Origin: Actinomycetes bacterium
GTDB lineage: Bacteria; Actinomycetota; Actinomycetes; Nanopelagicales; Nanopelagicaceae
Assembly: GCA_025354785.1 (NCBI GenBank)
Contig: JANXME010000326.1
Span: 1,506 to 65,505 of the forward strand
Direction of reading: 5' to 3'
DNA length: 64,000 bases
In this document: positions 2,812 to 62,988 of the stretch, piece by piece
Layout of the letters: the number at the start of each line of letters is the position of its first letter
Position numbering within the stretch: the first letter of the stretch is position 1
Translations under genes and position numbers: made by a program
The notes under the pieces: model-generated
Database searches by the model: none
The model's input: only the letters and a program-made list of their open reading frames with translations
What the model was told of the DNA's origin: nothing

Positions 2812-3242
2812 TAGAGTTCAATTTCCCAACGCGGACTGAATGGATGCTTAGTTATCTCACATTGTGTAACACGTTCAGGTCTGAAACTATGTATACGTTG
2901 ATGTATGCTACAAAACCCGTAAAAAAGTCTGCCGGTTGTCTTTTCCCTGAAACTATATGGTTCCACCAATCGTGATATGCCATCGTATGTTATCTGAAGC
3001 AACATCATCTTTCGACCAGCCTCGTGAATCATCTGAATTACATTAGATGCGTCGAGAGGGCCTGTTGGTGGTACTTCTGGTGCAGTTACGACGGGCTGGG
3101 GTGAGACAACCGGAGTCCTAACTGGTTGAACAGGGGGTGGCCGCAACGTAGGCTGCCTAACTGGCGAAGGCATACGTTGCGGCCTAGGTTGGGGGCTCCT
3201 AAAAAGTCGACGAATACGCGTCCAGAAGTCGTTAACAGCCAT
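2811..3242 (-). CDS. WYL-domain-like protein with Pro-rich N-terminus
   Basis: C-terminal LLQITYDGISRLVEPYSFREKTTGRLFYGFCSIHQRIHSFRPERV resembles the WYL signature; N-terminal PQPRPQRMPSPVRQPTLRPPPVQP is low complexity. Confidence 0.4.
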   Translation of the reverse strand: MAVNDFWTRIRRLFRSPQPRPQRMPSPVRQPTLRPPPVQPVRTPVVSPQPVVTAPEVPPTGPLDASNVIQMIHEAGRKMMLLQITYDGISRLVEPYSFREKTTGRLFYGFCSIHQRIHSFRPERVTQCEITKHPFSPRWEIEL

Positions 3243-3270
3243 TGGCCACCAGAAATAACTAAAATATGTT

Positions 3271-3552
3271 CTAACTCTTTGGATTTTCTGCGGTCTTCAA
3301 GAATGACACGATCCTGTTTTCATGTGCAACGTCCGTGCCAGCAGCCTCAGCCAATAATAGAAATTCAACCGCCTTCTTGATGCGTGTCTTACTCTCTGCG
3401 AGAGTTTCATTGATTGCTCCGACCAACGCTTTTTTGTTGTCTGAAACTTCTTGCATACTCTTGGTCTCATCGGCAATCATCTTGCGGAGCTCGGTGGTTG
3501 AAAGTTTAGCAAATCCATACGGATCACTGGGGTTTACTTGTTGGGTCGACAT
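3271..3552 (-). CDS. hypothetical protein
   Basis: 93-aa co-directional ORF; helical, charged; no motif. Confidence 0.5.
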   Translation of the reverse strand: MSTQQVNPSDPYGFAKLSTTELRKMIADETKSMQEVSDNKKALVGAINETLAESKTRIKKAVEFLLLAEAAGTDVAHENRIVSFLKTAENPKS

Positions 3553-3553
3553 A

Positions 3554-3925
3554 TTATCCTTTGCTGAGTGGGGTTAAACGTACAACATCTTGTGAGGTAA
3601 AAGCTGGACAGTTGGGTGTGTGGATGCCTTCATATTCAGGTTTGGTCGATATACAATGGGTCGTACCAGATCCTGGACGAATGGGAACATCATGTTCTAA
3701 ACAGTTGTTGCACCAAGGGCAGACTCCGCCTTCGTAGGCGTGGTAGCCAGCAACCTCAGCCTGTTTGATAAGATTCTCTAAATGTGTGACGGTAGATAAC
3801 AGGTGTGTAATTATGTTTATTAGACCATATGTGTCGACATTACCGCCGTATGGTCCAAGCGCATTCAACACTTCTTTCGAAGGCACAGACCCCACTGCGT
3901 CATCTATCACTGTATCGATATTCAT
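3554..3925 (-). CDS. hypothetical Cys/His-containing protein
   Basis: 123-aa ORF with 1-nt spacing to both neighbours; CPWCNNC..H..C cluster. Confidence 0.55.
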   Translation of the reverse strand: MNIDTVIDDAVGSVPSKEVLNALGPYGGNVDTYGLINIITHLLSTVTHLENLIKQAEVAGYHAYEGGVCPWCNNCLEHDVPIRPGSGTTHCISTKPEYEGIHTPNCPAFTSQDVVRLTPLSKG

Positions 3926-3926
3926 A

Positions 3927-5375
3927 TTATCCTAATACTATATTCCCATCGTGTTTATACTGACTACGCCGTATTGAGTGGTGCTTAGCTAAAAACGATA
4001 CATCGGTGTTGAGATCTATTAGCAGACCATTCACCTTACCCGGAGCGGCTCTTTCAACGCGTCCTTTCAGTTGTCGTATATCAGTTACATCACCTGCGAC
4101 AATTAGTGCATCCAGCGAGGGTATGTCCAGACCAGTTGATCCAAGGTCTGAGACTATGCAGAGTACCTTTTTGGTGCGCATATTATCATATGCAGTACGA
4201 CGAGCCAGCCTCTTGGTTTTACCATTAATTAAGACTGAACCTGGAATAAGGTCATGTATCGCTTGAGAAAATGCCAGCTTATGTGGTGCATATACAAAGA
4301 CTGTTCTGCCACCATTCATTAGGTCGAGCGCCAATTTAGCGATCTCTGCATGATATAGTGGATTATCCAGGATCTCTACATCGAGGCAGTGTTTAAAATT
4401 TTTGGCATTGTCAGGCGACAACACTCCGCGAAAGCCCCTCTTAAAATGTTCTTTATATTCGGTTCTGAGTGGCTGCCGATTAATGATGCTTACTATTAGA
4501 GGGGCCTTAACACCCAAGGAGATGAAATCGACCTTCCGACAGTCGTAGATGACCTCCCCGAAATGCTGTTCCAACTCAAGGTTGAATTTTTTCTCGGCTT
4601 TCTCGGCCCAACCATATGGGGTAGCAGACATTCCGAAAAACTTTTCGGTGGCCGTAAAATACGGCATAATTTTCCCGACAGTATTGGAATCGTACAGGTG
4701 GGCTTCGTCAGATATCACGACCCCCACCATATTTACGTGTCGTAACAATAATTTACGTTTATCGGCCGCCTCAATCGATTTAGCGTCGGTAATCGACGCG
4801 AAGGACTGCAGAGTAGTAACGGTGATGGGCTGTAGATCAAATTCACCATCGCCAATTACACCAATTGGCTGATCAAACAACCTAGCGAGGTTTTGCTGCA
4901 TCTGATCGAGTAATACGAGATCGGTTACCAAGACCATGGCATATTTTTTAAGTGTATTGATCATCAATGCGCACATCAGACTTTTGCCGCTACCTGTCGG
5001 GCTTACTATTATGCCCATATCTTTTGCCTCAACAACCGGCAAAAGATTTTGTTGGAACTCATAAGACTTAATCAGATGGGCATTAAACTTATGATCGATA
5101 TGTGGCGTGTGCTTCAGGTTGATCGTAACTATTGGATTATATCCATTCTCGGTCAATATTTGCACCACGCGGGGCAGCAAACCACGCCTAAAAATCGTAG
5201 TGGACGGATTGAAAAGCCGATTATATCCATCCCAGCGTTTATTAATGAAGCTCCATACATGCTCATACCCCTCGGCACGGCACTTGAGTTCTTCGTATAT
5301 TAAAGTTGTAACTGAAGGCGTTAAGGCGCTCTCGATCTTGCAATCGATATTATCTACAGATATTTTAATATCCAT
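3927..5375 (-). CDS. SF2 DEAD/DEAH-box helicase
   Basis: Walker A VSPTGSGKS, DEAH box VISDEAHLY, motif III MSATP, C-terminal helicase motifs GLDIPSLDALI and GRVER. Confidence 0.85.
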   Translation of the reverse strand: MDIKISVDNIDCKIESALTPSVTTLIYEELKCRAEGYEHVWSFINKRWDGYNRLFNPSTTIFRRGLLPRVVQILTENGYNPIVTINLKHTPHIDHKFNAHLIKSYEFQQNLLPVVEAKDMGIIVSPTGSGKSLMCALMINTLKKYAMVLVTDLVLLDQMQQNLARLFDQPIGVIGDGEFDLQPITVTTLQSFASITDAKSIEAADKRKLLLRHVNMVGVVISDEAHLYDSNTVGKIMPYFTATEKFFGMSATPYGWAEKAEKKFNLELEQHFGEVIYDCRKVDFISLGVKAPLIVSIINRQPLRTEYKEHFKRGFRGVLSPDNAKNFKHCLDVEILDNPLYHAEIAKLALDLMNGGRTVFVYAPHKLAFSQAIHDLIPGSVLINGKTKRLARRTAYDNMRTKKVLCIVSDLGSTGLDIPSLDALIVAGDVTDIRQLKGRVERAAPGKVNGLLIDLNTDVSFLAKHHSIRRSQYKHDGNIVLG

Positions 5376-6913: not shown

Positions 6914-7432
6914 TTACAATTTGGTGACTGATGCCGGGAATTTTGCCACATGTGCCAATAGATCCTTATTCTCTGGTCTATATAGCCATTCGCGATCTAC
7001 TCCGACTACACCGTTGTTAGCCGCCGATTTGATTGCATAAAGTGGAATTGCGCGCTTATCATTTGGACGCTCTTTACCATTGCTTTGCATGCCGCCAATG
7101 AATCCATTGATGTCGAACCACTCAACAAATCCGTTAACACCAGTGCTGCAATCTACTGGAACATACACAACTGCACTGAGAACCTTAACTGGGGCGACAT
7201 CAGTTACATCATCAAGAGCATCAAAAAGCTCTTCGTTGCCCAATTCAAATAAGCGGGATGTGTCCATCTTAAACATGTCTGCGCATAGAACATCGAGCTC
7301 ATCTAAAGTGCTTAGCAATTTTTCTTTACGAACCTCATGCCATTTCGCTCGCTCACTAAGAGCTAATGCTTGCGATGCTAGTTTGGTTGCCTGTAATGCA
7401 AGTTCCTTAGCTACATCCTGTCGTATACTCAT
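6914..7432 (-). CDS. hypothetical protein
   Basis: Track ORF 6914..7576 reads through a tRNA-like gene. MSIRQDV start at 7432 is preceded by AAGGAG. Confidence 0.55.
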   Translation of the reverse strand: MSIRQDVAKELALQATKLASQALALSERAKWHEVRKEKLLSTLDELDVLCADMFKMDTSRLFELGNEELFDALDDVTDVAPVKVLSAVVYVPVDCSTGVNGFVEWFDINGFIGGMQSNGKERPNDKRAIPLYAIKSAANNGVVGVDREWLYRPENKDLLAHVAKFPASVTKL

Positions 7433-7454
7433 ATCCTTTACAACTCCTTTCCTT

Positions 7455-7473
7455 CCTCTACAATATGTAGAGG
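7455..7473. repeat. perfect 8-bp inverted repeat hairpin (CCTCTACA ATA TGTAGAGG)
   Basis: Read directly. Lies between the tRNA-like gene and the SD of the next gene; no U-run follows, so not a classic terminator. Confidence 0.6.
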
Positions 7474-7481
7474 TACTGCAA

Positions 7482-7594
7482 TGCACATGGTTGGAGTTGA
7501 ACCAACGACCTGGGGCTTTCACGCCCCCCGCTCTACCAATCCTTCCCGTAGTTTCCGGACTCAATAAGGAAGGCACATCCTGAGCTACCTGTGC
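7482..7594 (-). tRNA. tRNA-like gene (Phe-GAA-like) with about 38-nt insertion in the D-loop and irregular anticodon loop
   Basis: Minus strand: GCACAGG TA GCTC AGG [ATGTGCCTTCCTTATTGAGTCCGGAAACTACGGGAAGG] ATTGGTA GAGC GGGGGG CGTGAAAG CCCC AGGTC GTTGG TTCAACT CCAAC CATGTGC A. Acceptor 6/7 bp, good T arm, no U33. Confidence 0.5.
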
Positions 7595-10531: not shown

Positions 10532-11662
10532 TCATAACATCCAGATGTAGTCGTCGTGTTCTGCAGAGGTGCCAATCATGACCACTGGTAGGTTGGTTAC
10601 ATCTTCCATCTTTTCAATATACGTTTGAACACTCCGGTGTAGCTTTCGGTATTCGGTGTGACCACCACGTACCTTGTAGGAGCTCCAGTGTATATATTGA
10701 GGAAAGTTGAGAATCAACTTGGTTGCCCCAGTTGCTTGTGCCGAGTCTGCTAGGAGACTCCAAGACTGTGTGGCTACCCGGCGAATCTTTTTCGTGACCG
10801 TCGTCCGCTCTCTCTCTGCCAGCCCGGCTGCCTCGTCGGGCGGCATGCCCGCATCTTTCGCAATTTGCTCCCATGTAGTTTCTTGTTGGTCGCTGCAGAA
10901 ATCACCAGAGTATCCAACCTGTGTCCCATCCTTGGTGAAATTGTTTCCAACACGTATGGCGAAACTTCGCACATTTAGATATACGTCGCCAATTAAACTG
11001 GGTGTAATACAAAAGTCTGAATAGGCTTGCTGCGGAGTGCAGTCACGAAAAGTACTATGGGGATAGTGTGTACCATAGTTAACTGAAAGTGCGAATCCCT
11101 GTGAGACTTCATGCATAAAGGTGCGGCCATCGGCAAATTCTTTGCGAACTGCCTTCATAAAATTCATTGGTGGTAGCGATGTATATTCTGGATAATTTCG
11201 TATTAAATCCACCGTTTCACCGCGCATAGCCTTTTCAGTGAAAGCTGCACCAGATCCACTCATGGTTGAAGAGATACGCTCTGTTGACTGCACTCCGCCA
11301 GGTGACTCCATATCAATATGCCGCTGGCTGGACACAATGGCACGTTCATGGAAGAATACCTCATTGTGTTTATACCCAGTTTCTTTAAGTTCCTTATTTA
11401 ATTGTTCAATGGTAAATCCAGAATTCGGTCCAACCCACAAACGGGGCTTACTTTTACCCATCGTATTCAGATATGATGGTGTAGGAATTGCCTTAGATAC
11501 AAACTTCTTAACCGAATGTACCACACTATGTCCAGCATTCGGAAAGTTACATGTCGAAACATTTTCTGTCTTATAAATGTCGACTAGTCGAGTCGACGCA
11601 GCCCCTTTCGCACTTGAACCCCAAGCAGAATCTACGATACAATTAAACTTACCCTTTTGCAT
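10532..11662 (-). CDS. adenylosuccinate synthetase family protein (divergent PurA homologue; candidate PurZ)
   Basis: Collinear with E. coli PurA motifs: WGSSAKG (GDEGKGK), FPNAGHSV (GGHNAGHT), ISSTMSGSGAAFTEK (IGTTGRGIGPAYEDK), IRVGNN (TRVGAG), TKLI (TKLD), IGTSAEH (ISTGPDR). 376 aa versus about 430. Confidence 0.75.
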   Translation of the reverse strand: MQKGKFNCIVDSAWGSSAKGAASTRLVDIYKTENVSTCNFPNAGHSVVHSVKKFVSKAIPTPSYLNTMGKSKPRLWVGPNSGFTIEQLNKELKETGYKHNEVFFHERAIVSSQRHIDMESPGGVQSTERISSTMSGSGAAFTEKAMRGETVDLIRNYPEYTSLPPMNFMKAVRKEFADGRTFMHEVSQGFALSVNYGTHYPHSTFRDCTPQQAYSDFCITPSLIGDVYLNVRSFAIRVGNNFTKDGTQVGYSGDFCSDQQETTWEQIAKDAGMPPDEAAGLAERERTTVTKKIRRVATQSWSLLADSAQATGATKLILNFPQYIHWSSYKVRGGHTEYRKLHRSVQTYIEKMEDVTNLPVVMIGTSAEHDDYIWML

Positions 11663-21063: not shown

Positions 21064-22227
21064 CTATTGACACTCGTCAATCATGTTGTCGAGTTCGTTT
21101 TCCATTGCAGCAGCACTCATGTATATATCAAGAATCTTGCCGCCGGTTTGAGTGGCAGCTGCTTGATATGATAGCGCGACTCCGGCCTCTGTAAAGATAA
21201 ATACTTTCATGTTTGCATCAGATGCCTCAGTGGCTGCTTCGTCAATAGTGTGTGTAATCGGAGCATAGGATTGAGCGTACTCGTCTGAAAACATAATGAA
21301 GGTTCTCTTGGCGCCCGCCCGCCAATTCAAATGCAGATGGTTAACTGGATCAGCGGTCATATATATCGCATCAATAGTTGGCTCACTCCCAGTATCACCA
21401 GAGCGTTCATAGGCCATTCTTTGATTAAATACAGATACGGTCGTAAAATTTTGGACGAGTTTTACCTTATAGTCGTCAATTGTATCTGGCCCCGGACACT
21501 CCTCTAAGGCCCACGTGAGATCTGCGCGCCCCGCATATTTGGTGGTCCATTGCTGCGTAACTCCTTTAATCGTATTAATTACATTGCCCATTGACCCAGA
21601 ATTGTCTATGCAGATAACTATATCACGTGGATACAATGATGTTCCATTGTCTACGATTCCGTCACAATTATCATCAATATGATTGCACATTTCTGGCCTT
21701 GGAAGCACTTGTCCAATACATTTAGATGAGCCGTCCACGCATGATTTTATTCCAGCTTTGCAGTTGCCCTTGCCAAGTGTGTCAAGTGGAGCATCATAGC
21801 AAACTGCATCCGATATCGTTTTGTACACAATATTATCTATAATACCATCACAATCATTATCCAAGCCGTCACATACCTCTGGGCCACCTTCGTTGCCAAG
21901 ACATGACGATTGGACCCCACCTACACAAGTTTTAATGCCTGAACCACACGGGTTAACACATTGGGTGACTGGCTCATCTATAAATCCGTCACAATTATTG
22001 TCTAGTCCATTGCAGACCACTGGACCGGGTTTGCCTGATCCAAGACACACCGGATTTTGATCGTCATCGGCACAATCCCATTTGCCAAAAGCACAAACAC
22101 CCTTACCTGCCAGATTGTTTTCGCCATCGAAACATGGGGAGTCGCATTTTGGATTTGGCGCTTTAACCAAATGATACTTAGTGCACCCGGCAAACAGTGC
22201 TAGAACCACCAAAATACAAACTCTCAT
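21064..22227 (-). CDS. lipoprotein with Cys-rich DNDCDG repeats and C-terminal vWA domain
   Basis: Signal peptide with lipobox LFAG-C; repeats CNGLDNNCDGFID, CDGLDNDCDGIID, CNHIDDNCDGIVD; MIDAS CIDNSGSM. Confidence 0.7.
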   Translation of the reverse strand: MRVCILVVLALFAGCTKYHLVKAPNPKCDSPCFDGENNLAGKGVCAFGKWDCADDDQNPVCLGSGKPGPVVCNGLDNNCDGFIDEPVTQCVNPCGSGIKTCVGGVQSSCLGNEGGPEVCDGLDNDCDGIIDNIVYKTISDAVCYDAPLDTLGKGNCKAGIKSCVDGSSKCIGQVLPRPEMCNHIDDNCDGIVDNGTSLYPRDIVICIDNSGSMGNVINTIKGVTQQWTTKYAGRADLTWALEECPGPDTIDDYKVKLVQNFTTVSVFNQRMAYERSGDTGSEPTIDAIYMTADPVNHLHLNWRAGAKRTFIMFSDEYAQSYAPITHTIDEAATEASDANMKVFIFTEAGVALSYQAAATQTGGKILDIYMSAAAMENELDNMIDECQ

Positions 22228-27256: not shown

Positions 27257-27514
27257 ATGGATCCTATACTCAAAAAATGTTGGCGATGTCCAGCTGACAA
27301 AGGTGGGCAACCGCCTGAAAACTTCTGTCGTGATGGTAAAGACTCGGTGTGTAAGTCATGTCGATATGAACTGAATGCTGAATGGGCTAAGAATAACCGT
27401 GAGAAGCTGCGTCCAAAGCGCGCCGAATACATGCGCCACTATCGCGCGCAAAAAGCAAAAGAACAAGCTGCAAAAGACGTGCCAGCGGCCCCCACTGAAG
27501 ATCCAGAAAAATAG
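27257..27514 (+). CDS. N-terminal Zn-ribbon module of HNH family B without the nuclease core (truncated remnant)
   Basis: CWRC..FC..SVCKSCRYELNAEW parallels CTGC..F..SKCKKCYSN of 57596..58051; no DH..N..CH core. Stop TAG touches the 3' end of the opposite-strand tRNA. ATG 27257 with AAGG SD. Confidence 0.5.
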   Translation: MDPILKKCWRCPADKGGQPPENFCRDGKDSVCKSCRYELNAEWAKNNREKLRPKRAEYMRHYRAQKAKEQAAKDVPAAPTEDPEK

Positions 27515-27595
27515 CTCCGTGAGGGAGTCGAACCCACGCGTTCTTACGAAGCCTGCTTACAAAGCAGGTGCACTCGGCCACTATGCGAACGGAGC
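27514..27595 (-). tRNA. type II (long variable arm) tRNA with apparent UGU (Thr) anticodon
   Basis: GCTCCGT TC GCA TAGTGGCCGAG TGC A CCTGC TTTGTAA GCAGG CTTCGTAAGAACGC GTGGG TTCGACT CCCTC ACGGAGC. 7-bp acceptor, 3-bp D stem, 14-nt variable arm, one U-U in the T stem. Confidence 0.6.
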
Positions 27596-30915: not shown

Positions 30916-30955
30916 CAGATGCGATCCTGACTACAACTTATATAAAAAATATTAT

Positions 30956-31028
30956 TGAGAATGACAGGAGTTGAACCCGCGTCTACTAAGTCGATACTTT
31001 AGTCGCTCTACCGTTGAGCTACATTCCC
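30956..31028 (-). tRNA. tRNA-like gene with 9-nt anticodon loop (isotype undetermined)
   Basis: GGGAATG TA GCTC AACGGTA GAGC G ACTAA AGTATCGAC TTAGT AGAC GCGGG TTCAACT CCTGT CATTCTC A. Acceptor, D and T arms fold normally; the loop does not fit a 7-nt U33 pattern. Confidence 0.5.
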
Positions 31029-31063
31029 ATTTATTGCCTAATTAAGACCTTTTGACGTGTCAC

Positions 31064-40243: not shown

Positions 40244-40315
40244 TGCGGCCTATCGGATTTGAACCGATAACCCTCGACTTGGAAGGCAGATGCTCTACCG
40301 TTGAGCTAAGGACGC
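40244..40315 (-). tRNA. tRNA-Gly (UCC), two stem mismatches
   Basis: GCGTCCT TA GCTC AACGGTA GAGC A TCTGC CTTCCAA GTCGA GGGTT ATCGG TTCAAAT CCGAT AGGCCGC A. U4-C69 and U29-C41 mismatches. Confidence 0.7.
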
Positions 40316-40530: not shown

Positions 40531-40531
40531 A

Positions 40532-40605
40532 TAGCGGGAGTGGGATTTGAACCCACAACAGGCGGGTTATGAGCCCGCTGATCTACCGGATTGATCTATC
40601 CCGCA
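40532..40605 (-). tRNA. tRNA-Met (CAU) with initiator-type features
   Basis: TGCGGGA TA GATC AATCCGGTA GATC A GCGGG CTCATAA CCCGC CTGTT GTGGG TTCAAAT CCCAC TCCCGCT A. Unpaired 1:72, A11:U24, three G-C pairs closing the anticodon stem. Confidence 0.8.
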
Positions 40606-40606
40606 A

Positions 40607-40688
40607 TGTCGGATACTGGAATTGAACCAGTGGCCCCTAAAATCGCCCTTTCGGGATACTTAGCACTCTTTCTCTGAGCTAATCCGAC
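40607..40688 (-). ncRNA. tRNA-shaped RNA with 17-nt anticodon region forming a GAAA-capped hairpin
   Basis: GTCGGAT TA GCTC AGAGAAA GAGT G CTAAG TAT-CCC-GAAA-GGG-CGAT TTTAG GGGCC ACTGG TTCAATT CCAGT ATCCGAC A. Perfect acceptor and T arm; no 7-nt anticodon loop. Confidence 0.5.
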
Positions 40689-40770
40689 TAACTCCAGCAG
40701 CTTCTTAGGTAATTTCGCGCCTATACCCAATTCTTTCTGACATAATTAAACAAGCTTACAGTCATCCATC

Positions 40771-40824
40771 TTAGATGGGAATCGAACCCACATTGCGCTA
40801 GACCTCTACCTGCTCAACTACATC
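40771..40824 (-). other. tRNA fragment-like sequence (T arm GTGGG TTCGATT CCCAT, no matching acceptor or anticodon arm)
   Basis: GATGTAGTTGAGCAGGTAGAGGTCTAGCGCAATGTGGGTTCGATTCCCATC; no 5' partner for the 3' acceptor strand could be found. Confidence 0.35.
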
Positions 40825-40896
40825 TGGTGGGGAGTCCCGGTCGTGAGACGGGATCCTTGGCCGTAAGGCCGCCGTTCTACTTTGAACTAACTCCCC
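40825..40896 (-). ncRNA. 68-nt tRNA-like small RNA, paralogue A, with encoded ACCA tail
   Basis: GGGGAGT TA GTTC AAAGTA GAAC G GC GGCC TTAC GGCC AAG GA TCCCG TCTCACGAC CGGGA CTCCCC ACCA. Central tetraloop hairpin instead of an anticodon loop; 9-nt loop in the T position. Confidence 0.45.
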
Positions 40897-40901
40897 ATAA
40901 A

Positions 40902-40970
40902 GCCCGAGGGCGGTTGCGAGGCGCCATCTCTCCCCTATAACGGGGCCGCTCTGCTTTGAGCTACTCGGGC
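40902..40970 (-). ncRNA. 69-nt tRNA-like small RNA, paralogue B (possible UAU loop)
   Basis: GCCCGAG TA GCTC AAAGCA GAGC G G CCCC GTTATA GGGG AG AGAT GGCG CCTCGCAAC CGCC CTCGGGC. Same architecture and loop motifs (AAAGYA, YCTCRCRAC) as 40825..40896. Confidence 0.45.
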
Positions 40971-44895: not shown

Positions 44896-47502
44896 TCACC
44901 TTAATAGTTGTAATAGTGCAGCCAGTTCGACCGGCGCCATCTTAGCAACACCAGCACATGTGTTGTTTACCTGATTGCAATTTGCTCCTACGTTAGGGTG
45001 AATACCATCACGAAGGTCTGCCAACGTTAATACCGAGTTAACATCTGCTAAACGCACTTTCTGCCCCGCAGTGACCCTTGCAGCTACCAGCCGGCGCAAC
45101 TCGGTATTATACTGTTGTGCAAGTACGGCCCGATCTACATTGTTCGGTGCTACCAACACTGACGACTGAGGTGGGATTGTTTGCACCACAATTTTTACGT
45201 TCGGTAGTGTTTGTTGAATGGTGGTGATTAGAACATCCTGTCGACCTGCAACACTCGTGCCAGTCTCGGCTGTCCACCATGCAATATCATTAGTTCCGGC
45301 CATGACGACCACAACATCTGGTTGATAGGTATTCAGCCACCCTACAACTTGCGCACTAATATCTCCAATTGTCCAACCTGGATGTCCCTCGTGGCGTGTG
45401 GAACATGGATCGTATGTATTTGCCTGAGACCCTACAGGTACGATATTATATCCAGCTGCGATTGCCTGTGTGGTAAGTGCGCAGCGCCATGACCATTCTT
45501 CTTGTGTTATCGAGTCACCAAGGTCCATGAGCTTAATGGCTGCGCCCGTGACCGGTGCACCCGCATCGACAACCCCGGCGTCTGGAACCACGGTGCCAGC
45601 GTCCTTTGCCACAACTCCTGCATCTGTCACTGGTGGCGGGGGTGTGCCCGCATCCGGTGTTTGAGTGCCCGCGCCCCACGAAATTGAGTCAACATATATA
45701 ATACCAGACAGGGCTGCGTTTGGCTGCAGTTCCACACCAAGGCTTTGCAACACACCTGGAACAGTGGGCAGAGTGAGTGTGAACGTATTCCATCCGACAA
45801 TCAGTGCTGACTGTGGGAACCAGTTAGAGTTCCATTTCCATGAAGTGGTTGCGTCTTCCTGAGCAAACACCTGTAATGAAGTGAGGGCCGTGACCACAGG
45901 GATATAGACATGGTATGTAATCGTCGTGCCGCGCGGGACTGCTGGGTTGGCTACGATGAAGCTCTGATTGGCAGATGAGGAGCCATTGAATGTTCCAGCC
46001 AGTGACCGTAAGCCAGCAAATGCCTTGGCCGTACTGGTACCAAGCGTGCCACCCCCGCCAGTTAGAGTAAACCCCTGCAGATTGCCCGCAGTCTCGAAGT
46101 TGCATTGTGCAGGATCCAAAACAACTCCACCTGCGTCTGGTGTGCCAGCATCCTTAGTGCCTGCGTCAGGTGACCCAGCATCAACAACTATCGTGCCTGC
46201 ATCCTTTATACCCGCATCCACAACCGTTCCAGCGTCAGGTGTTATACACACACAAGTACACACGGCACCTGCATCTGGCGACCCGGCATCAACAATGCCT
46301 GCGTCAGGCACAGGGGCGCTAGATGGTAGATTCATGCCTCCACTAGCATAAAATGTACCAACATTGACTTTCAGGAAATCGTTGTCAACTTCTTGACGGC
46401 TCTGGCATCCCTCGCCCGCTCCGAACAACAGTGAAATCATGCCACTGCTTACAAATTTTTGTAGATGCGTGGTGCCACCGTTGCCGAAGAAATATTCTGA
46501 ACGATTGTCTTTGTATCCACTACCTATGCTACCATTGTAGCATACATCCTTACTAAAGGAGTTGCCAATCGGCACCTGCCAAAGCACCCAACGCTTGGAT
46601 GCCTTTACGTTCCAGAGGCGCATCCATTCAGCATAACGATTGAAGCTTCTGGTGTTTATGGCAGCTGTATCAGCTGTGTCCCACCAACGATTCTCTCCTC
46701 TTACAAGCGTGTAGTAGTTAGAATCTCTGTCAAGAGGGTCGCCCACTAATATATCATATGTATCACCAGTTATATTAGCGACTAGCCCCAGTGGCGCTAA
46801 GAAGTTGTATACATTGTCAACAGCTGGCTGTAGCGGATCGGTCACATTGAAATGTATGATGTCTAACCCAGTTGCCCAGCCAGAAATGTGCATACCCAAT
46901 ATTACGTTTGTTGCACCAACAGACTTGCGCATCTGCAAAAATGCTAACCCCCATCCTGCAGCCGTATTGGGTAGCCCGGCTAGCTCTGGTAGACCAGTGG
47001 ATGCGATTGCGGCTGGAGCAGTTGGTACTACGGCTGACTCTTGTAGATATGCATATCCATCTGGTTCAAGCATAACTAGGACCGGTCTGCCAAATGTCTT
47101 TGCTTGCTGCATTAGCAGCTTGAAATCGCCAAAATATTCGGCCATTGCTGTGGGCGATTGTACCTTTTGGTAGAATCCGGTATTAGCGGGCGGGATGTCA
47201 TACATTTCATAGTACGAGATAGCTGGAATGTATCCGTTGGCGTCTGCGGACTTGAAGAAGGACTGAGCGAAGGCGCCGTCACGTGGGCCACCGCCCCAAT
47301 TGGTGGCCCAGGAGTATGTCAGATAGATATATTCCAGATCCCACTGGACACCGCTATTGTGCATCCAGGTTGTGGACGCTGAGTCGTTGTTGTTGAATAG
47401 CCCGATAGATAACTTTTGCGGCATTGGTGCCGGCACAGACCCAGATGGGCCTGCCCATGCATTAACAGTAAGAAGGAGGCAGATTAAGCAGCTTAATTTC
47501 AT
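44896..47502 (-). CDS. secreted modular protein: N-terminal domain, DAG-rich linkers, beta-sandwich (CBM-like) domain, C-terminal SGNH/GDSL hydrolase
   Basis: Signal peptide MKLSCLICLLLTVNAWA; linkers PDAGIVDAGSPDAG..DAGTKDAGTPDAGG; SGNH blocks LGDSITQ, MAGTNDI, DGIHPN. Confidence 0.75.
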   Translation of the reverse strand: MKLSCLICLLLTVNAWAGPSGSVPAPMPQKLSIGLFNNNDSASTTWMHNSGVQWDLEYIYLTYSWATNWGGGPRDGAFAQSFFKSADANGYIPAISYYEMYDIPPANTGFYQKVQSPTAMAEYFGDFKLLMQQAKTFGRPVLVMLEPDGYAYLQESAVVPTAPAAIASTGLPELAGLPNTAAGWGLAFLQMRKSVGATNVILGMHISGWATGLDIIHFNVTDPLQPAVDNVYNFLAPLGLVANITGDTYDILVGDPLDRDSNYYTLVRGENRWWDTADTAAINTRSFNRYAEWMRLWNVKASKRWVLWQVPIGNSFSKDVCYNGSIGSGYKDNRSEYFFGNGGTTHLQKFVSSGMISLLFGAGEGCQSRQEVDNDFLKVNVGTFYASGGMNLPSSAPVPDAGIVDAGSPDAGAVCTCVCITPDAGTVVDAGIKDAGTIVVDAGSPDAGTKDAGTPDAGGVVLDPAQCNFETAGNLQGFTLTGGGGTLGTSTAKAFAGLRSLAGTFNGSSSANQSFIVANPAVPRGTTITYHVYIPVVTALTSLQVFAQEDATTSWKWNSNWFPQSALIVGWNTFTLTLPTVPGVLQSLGVELQPNAALSGIIYVDSISWGAGTQTPDAGTPPPPVTDAGVVAKDAGTVVPDAGVVDAGAPVTGAAIKLMDLGDSITQEEWSWRCALTTQAIAAGYNIVPVGSQANTYDPCSTRHEGHPGWTIGDISAQVVGWLNTYQPDVVVVMAGTNDIAWWTAETGTSVAGRQDVLITTIQQTLPNVKIVVQTIPPQSSVLVAPNNVDRAVLAQQYNTELRRLVAARVTAGQKVRLADVNSVLTLADLRDGIHPNVGANCNQVNNTCAGVAKMAPVELAALLQLLR

Positions 47503-62775: not shown

Positions 62776-62848
62776 TTGCACGTATCGGATTTGAACCAAT
62801 GTTTCCACTCTGTACGAATGGTATCCTAGACCTCTAGATGAACGTGAA
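62776..62848 (-). tRNA. tRNA-like gene, UAC (Val) anticodon position but G at position 33
   Basis: TTCACGT TC ATC TAGAGGTCTAG GAT A CCATT CGTACAG AGTGG AAAC ATTGG TTCAAAT CCGAT ACGTGCA A. 3-bp D stem, one acceptor mismatch. Confidence 0.55.
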
Positions 62849-62857
62849 CTTCTCTAT

Positions 62858-62895
62858 AGATGGGTACTATTCGAATCATAGTTAGTATCCCATCT
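62858..62895. repeat. long imperfect hairpin (AGATGGG..CCCATCT) around a TTCGAA core
   Basis: AGATGGGTACTATTCGAATCATAGTTAGTATCCCATCT. The AGATGGG word also occurs beside the tRNA fragment at 40771. Confidence 0.5.
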
Positions 62896-62907: not shown

Positions 62908-62988
62908 TGGAAGTTGCAGGAATCGAACCTGCTTGTATTTCTACGTCCGATTTACAGTCGGGTGTCAAGTCCGTAAGACGGAACTTCC
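62908..62988 (-). tRNA. tRNA-Tyr (GUA), type II
   Basis: GGAAGTT CC GTC TTACGGACTT GAC A CCCGA CTGTAAA TCGGA CGTAGAAATACAA GCAGG TTCGATT CCTGC AACTTCC A. Confidence 0.85.

Follow-up and report, generated by a model that had tools for sequence, protein, structure and literature searches.

Tandem tRNA-like genes with a sealed anticodon arm: candidate non-decoding tRNA mimics in an apparent very large phage

What might a tRNA-shaped gene do if it has no anticodon loop? This question is raised by three consecutive genes, R1, R2 and R3 (table 1), in a stretch of 64,000 nt of DNA (positions 1,506 to 65,505 of contig JANXME010000326.1, assembly GCA_025354785.1; 'the window'), which from its gene content looks like part of a very large phage. 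The initial annotation had described three minus-strand tRNA-shaped genes without a 7-nt anticodon loop at this locus, and the sequence itself, ARAGORN, Rfam and RNAfold all agree with this description. We have little doubt, given the covariation detailed below, that R1, R2, R3 and a fourth gene of the window (R4) represent real, selected and structured RNAs, and these RNAs are very probably non-decoding. The reading that we favour, and to which we give about an even chance, is that they are genes for stable tRNA mimics which present a tRNA body to a partner protein.

R1 reads GCCCGAG-UA-GCUC-AAAGCA-GAGC-G-[CCCC-GUUAUA-GGGG]-GAGAU-GGCG-CCUCGCAAC-CGCC-CUCGGGC-U, i.e. it consists of an acceptor stem (GCCCGAG/CUCGGGC), a D arm (GCUC-AAAGCA-GAGC), a closed central hairpin (CCCC-GUUAUA-GGGG) and a T arm with the stem GGCG/CGCC and a 9-nt loop (C-CUCGCAA-C). 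R2, separated from R1 by 5 nt within the tRNA cluster, follows the same plan with compensated changes in every stem: acceptor GGGGAGU/ACUCCCC, D arm GUUC-AAAGUA-GAAC, closed hairpin GGCC-UUAC-GGCC and a T arm with the stem CCCG/CGGG and the loop U-CUCACGA-C (UCUCACGAC), after which A-CCA is encoded. The extent first given for this gene (40825-40896) is correct for the gene with its encoded CCA, R2 proper being shorter (table 1). Likewise, the 9-nt loops originally written as YCTCRCRAC are real, but are better read as a 4-bp T stem with an N-CUCRCRN-C loop. In R3, which ends 1-2 nt before the gene for tRNA-Met, a CUAAG/UUUAG stem surrounds 17 nt that fold as a bulged hairpin with a GAAA cap. 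Its arms had been called orthodox, which holds for the acceptor stem and for the ordinary T arm (ACUGG-UUCAAUU-CCAGU) but not fully for the D arm (D loop AGAGAAA), because this lacks G18G19.

Table 1. Positions in the window of the tRNA-like genes and of the tRNA genes next to them.
Feature	Position	Strand	Basis
R1, 69-nt tRNA-like RNA plus discriminator U, no encoded CCA	40901-40970	minus	Rfam, fold, family B, orthologue
R2, paralogue of R1	40828-40896, encoded CCA to 40825	minus	Rfam, fold, orthologues
R3, 82-nt family-A tRNA-like RNA	40607-40688	minus	Rfam, fold, family model, orthologues
R4, fourth tRNA-like gene, very probably non-decoding	7482-7594	minus	family-A covariance model (48.8 bits), sequence, fold
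'tRNA-Asp(atc)', paralogue of R3	30955-31029	minus	ARAGORN, loop survey
Remnant between R2 and R3	40770-40824	minus	sequence, fold
tRNA-Met(CAU), conserved downstream partner of R3	40531-40606	minus	ARAGORN, Rfam
tRNA-Gly(UCC)	40244-40315	-	ARAGORN

All three genes give weak to moderate matches to tRNA. In a local scan, the Rfam tRNA model (RF00005, gathering threshold 29 bits) gave 46.1 bits for R3 (E 1.9e-8), 29.9 bits for R2 and 28.2 bits for R1, with the anticodon loop placed as an insertion or deletion in each of the three alignments; when Rfam was run at gathering thresholds, 40828-40896 alone was called (29.9 bits). With the family-A model described below, R3 scores 70.7 bits. RNAfold predicts all four helices of a cloverleaf for each element, the central hairpin being closed and a 7-nt anticodon loop absent (z-scores -2.1, -2.9 and -1.7). 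The anticodon loop of RF00005 (a 5-bp stem and a 7-nt loop with U33 and a purine at position 37) is replaced by loops of 6 nt in R1, 4 nt in R2 and 17 folded nt in R3, and it is due to the absence of a 7-nt anticodon loop that R1, R2 and R3 are not among the eight tRNAs that ARAGORN calls across the window. Also absent is the canonical elbow, i.e. G18G19 interacting with Psi55/C56 and a UUCRANY T loop: the D loops are AAAGCA, AAAGUA and AGAGAAA, and the T loops of R1 and R2 (CCUCGCAAC and UCUCACGAC) are unlike UUCRANY.

R3 belongs to a family (family A) that was collected from IMG/VR using only the 18-nt D arm of R3 (TAGCYCAGAGAAAGAGYG). The scan returned 39 loci, many of them inside tRNA arrays on contigs of 100-359 kb, and an extra member was found in the huge phage LR756511; altogether, 33 distinct IMG/VR and huge-phage sequences with the D loop AGAGAAA align cleanly (loci and contigs are designated here by L numbers). 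In this alignment 96.5% of the cells are paired, both-sided changes occur in 16 of the 21 pairs, and the covariation score is 0.807 as opposed to 0.178 after shuffling and at most 0.20 with slid partners. A canonical anticodon loop is found in none of the 33. Instead, all have as their central arm a closed hairpin of 12-34 nt, capped by a GNRA tetraloop in about 12 cases and otherwise by UUCG or short loops such as GUUGA; perfect hairpins are exemplified by CCUGGG-UUCG-CCCAGG and UCAUUGUG-GAAA-CAUAAUGA, and in a subfamily with the design of R3 (L285, L293, L297, L311, L282) a 5-bp stem leads via a 3x4 internal loop and another 2-3 bp to a GNRA cap. The canonical loop is missing in 39 of the 40 elements bearing the AGAGAAA D loop, and this association is not due to the way in which the sequences were collected. 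Family A keeps the variable loop AGGUC and U54, U55 and A58 of the T loop, whereas T-loop position 56, which is an invariant C in real tRNAs, can be C, U, A or G. N73-CCA is usually encoded, and is present wherever the real tRNAs of the same phage encode CCA. Of the 33 sequences, ARAGORN misses 13, reads a 2- or 4-base 'anticodon' in 9 and assigns a spurious amino acid to 11.

R1 and R2 represent a second, rarer family (family B). A D arm of the type GCUC-AAAGYA-GAGC also occurs in ordinary array tRNAs (e.g. the tRNA-Thr of L015), but its combination with a 4-bp T stem and an N-CUCRCRN-C loop was found in four sources only, i.e. the window, L012, L016 and L227. A second family-B pattern run on IMG/VR found L012 again and no new source; a metagenome scan with a pattern lacking the TAGY prefix gave 120 matches, of which L227 alone was real. 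Among the nine members, 95.4% of the cells are paired, with double changes in 13 of 17 pairs; for the acceptor and T stems these nine sequences show 100% pairing and double changes at every pair. The loops AAAGYA and YCUCRCRAC, whose conservation had been noticed at the outset, are not only real but pair with each other (the Y covaries with the first R of CUCRCRN): G-Y of the D loop stands antiparallel to R-C of the T loop, with an invariant G18:C58 pair and with Y19:R57 being C:G in four sequences, U:A in four and U.G in one. This pattern suggests a rewired D-loop/T-loop elbow. The Levitt pair alternates between A15:U48 and G15:C48, the latter being found in L227a and L227e. On the metagenomic contig L227 (4420-5085, minus strand), five tandem family-B copies form an operon-like array with central hairpins of varying length (caps GCAA and UUCG), one copy having a hairpin inserted into the D loop. 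Beyond the array come a terminator-like hairpin and, after it, an outward promoter-like TTGACA...TATATT. That five copies occur here with no ordinary tRNA argues for a function of their own. An APS-kinase-like protein is also encoded on this contig.

Related phage contigs (L325-L334), which were reached via homologues of a nearby C39-peptidase ORF (open reading frame; 68-94% protein identity), contain orthologues of R1, R2, R3 and R4. Positions 2018-2179 of L325 are 75.6% identical in nucleotide sequence to R1 plus R2, with flanks that cannot be aligned. In the R1 orthologue (L325 2031-2102), G7:C66 of the acceptor has become A:U and the Levitt pair has changed from A15:U48 to G15:C48; GC of the D loop is changed to GU along with a change of the T loop from CUCGCAA to CUUCACAA, the T stem is wholly replaced yet paired, and the closed hairpin is CGGCU-GCUUUA-AGCCG. 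The R2 orthologues (L325 2106-2176 and L327 2611-2683) keep ACCA and have a closed hairpin of other sequence. R3-type elements lie 1-5 nt upstream of an initiator-like tRNA-Met in the window, L325, L327, L331 and L332; these orthologues show compensated acceptor pairs and central arms of 27-46 nt, none with an anticodon loop. The closed hairpins of the orthologues thus vary in sequence and length, and comparison of these sequences indicates that the fold is under purifying selection while the content of the sealed arm is free to evolve. The homologous loci therefore display compensatory changes rather than random decay, and together with the covariation in the families they bear out the original suggestion of function. 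As a separate observation, L327 (2690-2779) and L331 (159-228), both on the plus strand, carry tRNAs with a UUA anticodon, which would read the UAA stop codon (ochre-suppressor type). They hint that this group of phages may reassign stop codons or read through them; no such tRNA is among the ARAGORN calls for the window.

R4, located between a RecA-like ORF and the next ORF, has a 46-nt hairpin within its D loop and the central arm GGGGC-GUGAAA-GCCCC. Its orthologue in L331 (1036-1147) keeps the GUGAAA loop on a compensated stem, and L316 (10986-11097) shows the same design. A mechanically called ORF (6914-7576, minus strand, 220 aa, GTG start) overlaps the R4 gene; its true start is probably an ATG near 7431, past a hairpin at about 7450-7475. 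The gene called 'tRNA-Asp(atc)' has the stem ACUAA/UUAGU with the 9-nt loop AGUAUCGAC and equals R3 minus the 10-nt CCCGAAAGGG hairpin; this loop type (AGUAAUGAC) recurs in L292 (8953-9028), L300 (1085-1160) and L294 (1534-1608). The remnant between R2 and R3 falls short of a full cloverleaf although its T arm (UGGGUUCGAUUCCCA, 40776-40790) is canonical, folds no better than shuffled sequences (z +0.28) and gives only a 12-bit partial tmRNA/T-arm match (tmRNA, transfer-messenger RNA); it is probably a truncated tRNA-like element.

Which protein could bind such RNAs? A Pfam scan of 148 ORFs neighbouring family-A loci revealed TROVE/Ro60 proteins in L285, L295, L297 and L316. The IMG/VR phage L295 carries, in succession, a Y-like RNA, the family-A RNA (2778-2865), a YrlA-like RNA (32 bits), a further Y-like RNA and Ro60 (3120-4430), i.e. 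the family-A RNA lies inside a Y-RNA cluster, 255 nt from Ro60 and with no ordinary tRNA nearby. A Ro-binding-type stem (GUAGUGU..CAGUUAC / ACUGUUACGAUUGUUCUC) is common to the three Y-like RNAs of L295 (2690-3100, plus strand), one of which includes a YrlA-like tRNA module. A control tblastn search found Ro60 at one other phage array locus (L009) and at two Myxococcota loci in metagenome-assembled genomes (MAGs), both of which had been retrieved by the R1 D-arm pattern. In these MAGs (Polyangiales and Myxococcales; L047 2119-2720, plus strand, and L058 5480-5760, minus strand), two YrlA copies lie downstream of Ro60. The first copy has a canonical elbow and scores 73 bits. The second, which contains the R1 pattern, scores 54-60 bits, below the Rfam gathering score; its D arm is identical to that of R1 (UAGCUCAAAGCAGAGCG; D loop AAAGCA) and its T loop, A(G/U)CUCGCGC, equals the family-B motif (CUCGCR) with two extra bases. 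In L047, the one of the two loci that was read in sequence, there are also an extra tRNA-like element at 2119-2200 and a short Y-like RNA after the second YrlA copy. AAAGYA elements of Streptacidiphilus and Streptomyces were likewise considered as YrlA RNAs, a claim that was dropped when Rfam gave no confirmation.

How could these RNAs work? They would be co-transcribed with neighbouring tRNAs, fold into an L-shaped tRNA body (7-bp acceptor stem, D arm, Levitt pair, T arm) and be released by RNase P and RNase Z, with CCA being added where it is not encoded; such tRNA-like processing is a likely proposition. Where a tRNA has its anticodon loop they have a sealed hairpin, which varies in length and often ends in a tetraloop, and consequently there would be neither codon reading nor a target for anticodon-loop nucleases. 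Anticodon nucleases recognize the anticodon loop, and the early proposal that R1-R3 are decoys for them is not supported since they do not have it. What remains under selection, and would then be the working surface, is the 'top half' of acceptor and T arm, the core and the modified elbow. The tRNA body may be presented in trans to a tRNA-recognizing partner, as is thought for the tRNA-like module of YrlA, and we rate such action in trans on a tRNA-binding protein as evenly balanced. In YrlA, the tRNA-like module undergoes modification by tRNA enzymes, and RNase P is able to cleave it (PMC4201824). The likeliest arena would be a conflict over RNA quality control, repair and decay (Ro60/Y-RNA type) or another process at tRNA ends. 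That the partner itself comes from a Ro60/Y-RNA-type pathway seems unlikely, and the same low probability applies to the more specific idea that the phage RNAs are free-standing tRNA-like effector modules of Y RNAs minus the Ro60-binding helix, which either engage or jam the cellular partner of that module, so as to subvert Ro60/Y-RNA surveillance and repair in the host, or serve a phage Ro60 particle in trans. The elbow (G-Y/R-C) would act as the recognition surface.

Several points weigh against this picture of trans-acting mimics. The expression, ends and binding of all members are predictions from sequence. The discriminator base of family A is varied (A in 20, G in 7, U in 5 and C in 1), so that the family as a whole has neither one aminoacylation identity nor one partner signature, and its invariant D arm follows from the sequences having been gathered by that D arm. 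Family B is small (nine sequences from four sources, five of them paralogues), and the covariation in its elbow is only suggestive (one-sided Fisher test, ~0.04). The fixed position of R3 directly 5' of tRNA-fMet is also compatible with a processing role in cis. The proposal of a Y-RNA- or YrlA-like mimic, which had been made from the start, gains from the elbow of the second Myxococcota YrlA copy, but Ro60 at 4 of 33 family-A loci is not significantly more than at 1 of 34 control loci with phage tRNA arrays, and its presence may reflect only that Ro60 and Y RNAs adjoin tRNA arrays; by tblastn, neither the window nor the retrieved parts of its relatives contain a Ro60 homologue. Moreover, the topology of R1-R3 is opposite to that of YrlA: the acceptor ends are free, it is the central arm that is closed, and a Ro60-binding helix is lacking. 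Proximity to Ro60 is therefore a lead only.

Among the alternatives to a trans-acting mimic, a role in cis survives best, although we regard it as improbable. The tRNA shape would then only guide the cuts of RNase P and RNase Z in the polycistronic transcript, e.g. to free the neighbouring initiator tRNA-Met, or protect transcript ends, with the released RNA being functionless. This would account for the location of R3-type elements 1-5 nt upstream of tRNA-Met in five related phages and for R1 and R2 being only 5 nt apart in a tRNA cluster, and the tRNAs of phage T4 are indeed matured from dimeric precursors. However, the 5' cut of a tRNA by RNase P requires no structured upstream neighbour, the five tandem copies of L227 have their own terminator and no ordinary tRNA to process, a lone family-A RNA stands among Y RNAs in L295, and selection of the Levitt pair and of the D-loop/T-loop pair is more than a cleavage signal requires.

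Somewhat less probable still is that the RNAs act through their acceptor ends, either as decoys for toxins attacking the 3' end of tRNA (CapRel, MenT/AbiEii or GNAT-type) or, once charged by a synthetase indifferent to the anticodon, as aminoacyl donors to a non-ribosomal reaction, a possibility that overlaps with the trans-acting mimic rather than excluding it. The acceptor stems and N73-CCA are intact, the sealed arm excludes these RNAs from the ribosome, and tRNA ends are contested in this phage, judging by the genes for PTH2, Thg1, Rnl1 and an Rnl2-like ligase in the window. Such repair sets are carried by jumbo phages (PMC7824862). Yet G3:U70, G-1 and a long variable arm are all absent, and with the varied discriminator this leaves no known anticodon-independent identity set; a stoichiometric enzyme decoy, moreover, would need very high abundance.

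In a further scenario, to which we assign a very low probability, R1-R3 are precursor tRNAs, with the hairpin being a mini-intron that is cut out before the phage RNA ligases (Rnl1 and the Rnl2-like ligase of the window) rejoin the ends into a 7-nt loop. In R3 and its subfamily (L285, L293, L297, L311) the hairpin does sit in a 3+4-nt internal loop, so that excision would leave 7 nt (UAUCGAU in R3), and the R3 paralogue at 30955-31029 exists without the hairpin. But these 7 nt lack U33 (R3 has A33), in most of the family the hairpin is perfect, so that its excision would leave nothing, and R1 and R2 have loops of 6 and 4 nt on 4-bp stems; nor is there a bulge-helix-bulge, as the unpaired strands are opposed rather than staggered, or a group I intron or other intron family by Rfam. 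Finally, the view that these are decaying tRNA pseudogenes without function, for which one could cite the low Rfam scores of R1 and R2, the truncated remnant between R2 and R3 and the 'pseudo-tRNAs' routinely listed in phage annotation papers, is strongly disfavoured by compensatory changes in every helix across 33 and 9 family members and between orthologues, by covarying tertiary pairs, by a closed arm that is tetraloop-capped far more often than decay predicts, and by helices that are intact or compensated rather than broken (95-96% of cells paired, double changes in 16/21 and 13/17 pairs).

How widespread are such RNAs? Across 42 sources, which were partly chosen for loci with such elements and are hence biased towards them, the canonical loop is missing in 72 of 134 model hits, which shows that closed-arm tRNA-like elements with several types of D loop are common in the tRNA arrays of large phages. 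A different, 63-66-nt mini tRNA-like element was seen in Clostridia MAGs, mostly of Acutalibacteraceae and Oscillospiraceae (L075, L080, L102, L130, L144, L148, L156, L062, L079, L120, L126, L106, L061), located 20-30 nt upstream of an ORF starting with MYEDKTLKC (zinc-ribbon type). With its acceptor-like stems (e.g. UGCCCCA/AAGGGCA), the D arm GCUC-AAAGCA-GAGC, a very short closed hairpin and the T loop UGCAAUU, it looks like an undescribed cis-regulatory leader; both copies that were scanned (L061 and L106) match tRNA only in Rfam, at ~44 bits. An Erysipelotrichaceae MAG (L038 2666-3534, plus strand) contains a ROOL RNA (295 bits) directly followed by a tRNA and by a tRNA with an AAAGCA D loop and the T loop UGCAAAU, which is another instance of a giant non-coding RNA beside unusual tRNAs.

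The wider setting of R1-R3 is that of a phage without a close cultured relative: by Thg1, the nearest records are uncultured huge phages with at most ~52-53% identity. Besides Thg1, PTH2, Rnl1 and the Rnl2-like RNA ligase, the window encodes a ribonucleotide reductase, a RecA-like protein, a DNA ligase and a PurA/PurZ-like enzyme. R1-R3, on the minus strand, follow a 681-aa ORF and precede tRNA-Met(CAU) and tRNA-Gly(UCC). In this tRNA-Met, bases 1 and 72 form a U.U mismatch, the anticodon stem has GGG/CCC next to the loop, and A11:U24 is present, features that we take to be the hallmarks of a bacterial initiator. A BLAST search of the RNA locus against 50,697 phage records matched ordinary tRNA-Met and tRNA-Gly only. 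With the 681-aa ORF as an anchor, only three Logan contigs of the same phage were retrieved, in which the RNA locus is 100% identical and the R1-R3 interval has no gene calls; neither this ORF as a protein anchor nor the central arm of R3 as an exact pattern found anything in IMG/VR, and PTH2 as an anchor yielded one, unrelated locus. A scan for consensus promoters and terminators had no match on the minus strand.

Other features of the window deserve mention in their own right. The match of a 376-aa ORF (10532-11662, minus strand) to adenylosuccinate synthetase (PF00709, E 7e-19) is confined to its N-terminal part; in size and match pattern this ORF resembles the phage PurZ enzymes for 2-aminoadenine (Z) genomes. 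The 83-nt tRNA-Thr(UGU) (27513-27595, minus strand) combines an anticodon loop of normal type with an additional variable arm with a GUAA cap (CUUCGUAAGAACGC), which is unusual for a threonine tRNA. Two further irregular tRNA-like genes lie upstream of tRNA-Lys (62790-62870 and 62908-62988, minus strand): one is Tyr-like, with a GUA anticodon, a long variable arm and an odd D arm (37 bits in Rfam, no ARAGORN call), and the other has the D arm CUAG-AGGU-CUAG and the loop CGUACAG without U33. The same motif, UAGAGGUCUAG, recurs in the remnant described above (40800-40812). Two secreted-looking proteins are encoded at 44896-47502 and 21064-22227 (minus strand), one with long PDAG/DAGT low-complexity repeats and a GDSL lipase domain, the other with a MopE-type metal-binding motif and a VWA domain. 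The style of the repeats is reminiscent of myxobacterial proteins and, together with the elbow shared with the second YrlA copy, hints at Myxococcota as a candidate host.

Phage tRNA clusters are usually seen as codon-supply or anti-defence kits, and elements that fail tRNAscan or ARAGORN are usually dismissed as pseudo-tRNAs. The RNAs described here define at least two new RNA families with signatures that can be used for covariance models and Rfam. They also indicate that counts of phage tRNAs and suppressors are inflated by the spurious anticodons (Gln, Ala, Val, SeC, 'Pyl') that software assigns, and they point to an alternative, covariation-supported tRNA elbow that is common to family B and a Y RNA paralogue.

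Overall, R1-R3 are placed in no known family, because the features of tRNA (anticodon loop and elbow) and of YrlA (Ro60-binding helix and topology) fail in them. With phage tRNAs they share the cloverleaf, the setting in a tRNA cluster and the style of the 3' end of neighbouring tRNAs, but they have neither a 7-nt anticodon loop with U33 and R37 nor G18G19, and in contrast to real tRNAs family A does not conserve C56 and family B has a rebuilt T loop. Stable RNA species 1 of phage T4 (rnaC) is likewise a stable small RNA at the end of a tRNA cluster, and it has a terminal stem as well as a T arm of canonical type (CCGGGUUCGAAUCCCGG); it differs in having 139 nt, long extra arms and no cloverleaf with a short sealed central arm. 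As a homologue it was rejected, since the family-A covariance model gives 8.1 bits on rnaC and the arms differ in fold. The tRNA-like domain of tmRNA is similarly an anticodon-less mimic using acceptor and T arm, but G3:U70 alanine identity, a reduced D region, a tag reading frame and SmpB dependence are absent in the phage RNAs, whose acceptors have G3:C70 or C3:G70, and ARAGORN finds no tmRNA. The tRNA-Other of B. cereus and the allo-tRNAs with polycistrons of irregular tRNAs (PMC5389517) are also tRNA-derived, odd-armed and clustered, and some are suspected to be regulatory; yet these irregular tRNAs keep the anticodon loop and vary the lengths of acceptor and T stem (8/4, 9/3), whereas R1-R3-type RNAs keep the 7/5 or 7/4 branch and have abolished the anticodon loop. 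Searches of open-access papers and preprints found no description of anticodon-less tRNA-like families in phages, so within that literature the first impression of an undescribed RNA class stands, qualified by the partial precedents of T4 rnaC, Y RNAs and 'pseudo-tRNA' calls.

The most instructive comparison is that with YrlA (RF02553) and Yrn1 of D. radiodurans. Like R1-R3, these RNAs are tRNA-derived and non-decoding, with a tRNA-like D arm, T arm and acceptor-type stem; in a model of Yrn1, a 6-nt loop closes an 'anticodon' stem of 5 bp, and YrlA also shows a covarying Levitt pair, as do R1-type RNAs with A15:U48 and G15:C48. Unlike R1-R3, however, YrlA is circularly permuted, such that its ends at the position of the anticodon stem form the Ro60-binding helix while the acceptor stem is closed by a loop; the ends of R1-R3 form a plain 7-bp acceptor stem instead of an end helix with a GNCGAAN0-1G-type motif. 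An adjacent Ro60 gene, as is typical of YrlA, is absent from the window and present at L285, L295, L297 and L316. A YrlA hit at the R1-R3 locus was spurious (21 bits, partial, across the junction of R3 and tRNA-Met), and a scan of the whole window gave none. The Y-RNA parallel is nevertheless the best lead to the partner protein and, with the phage RNAs corresponding to the module in isolation, it could provide a genetic handle on what the tRNA-like module of bacterial Y RNAs binds.

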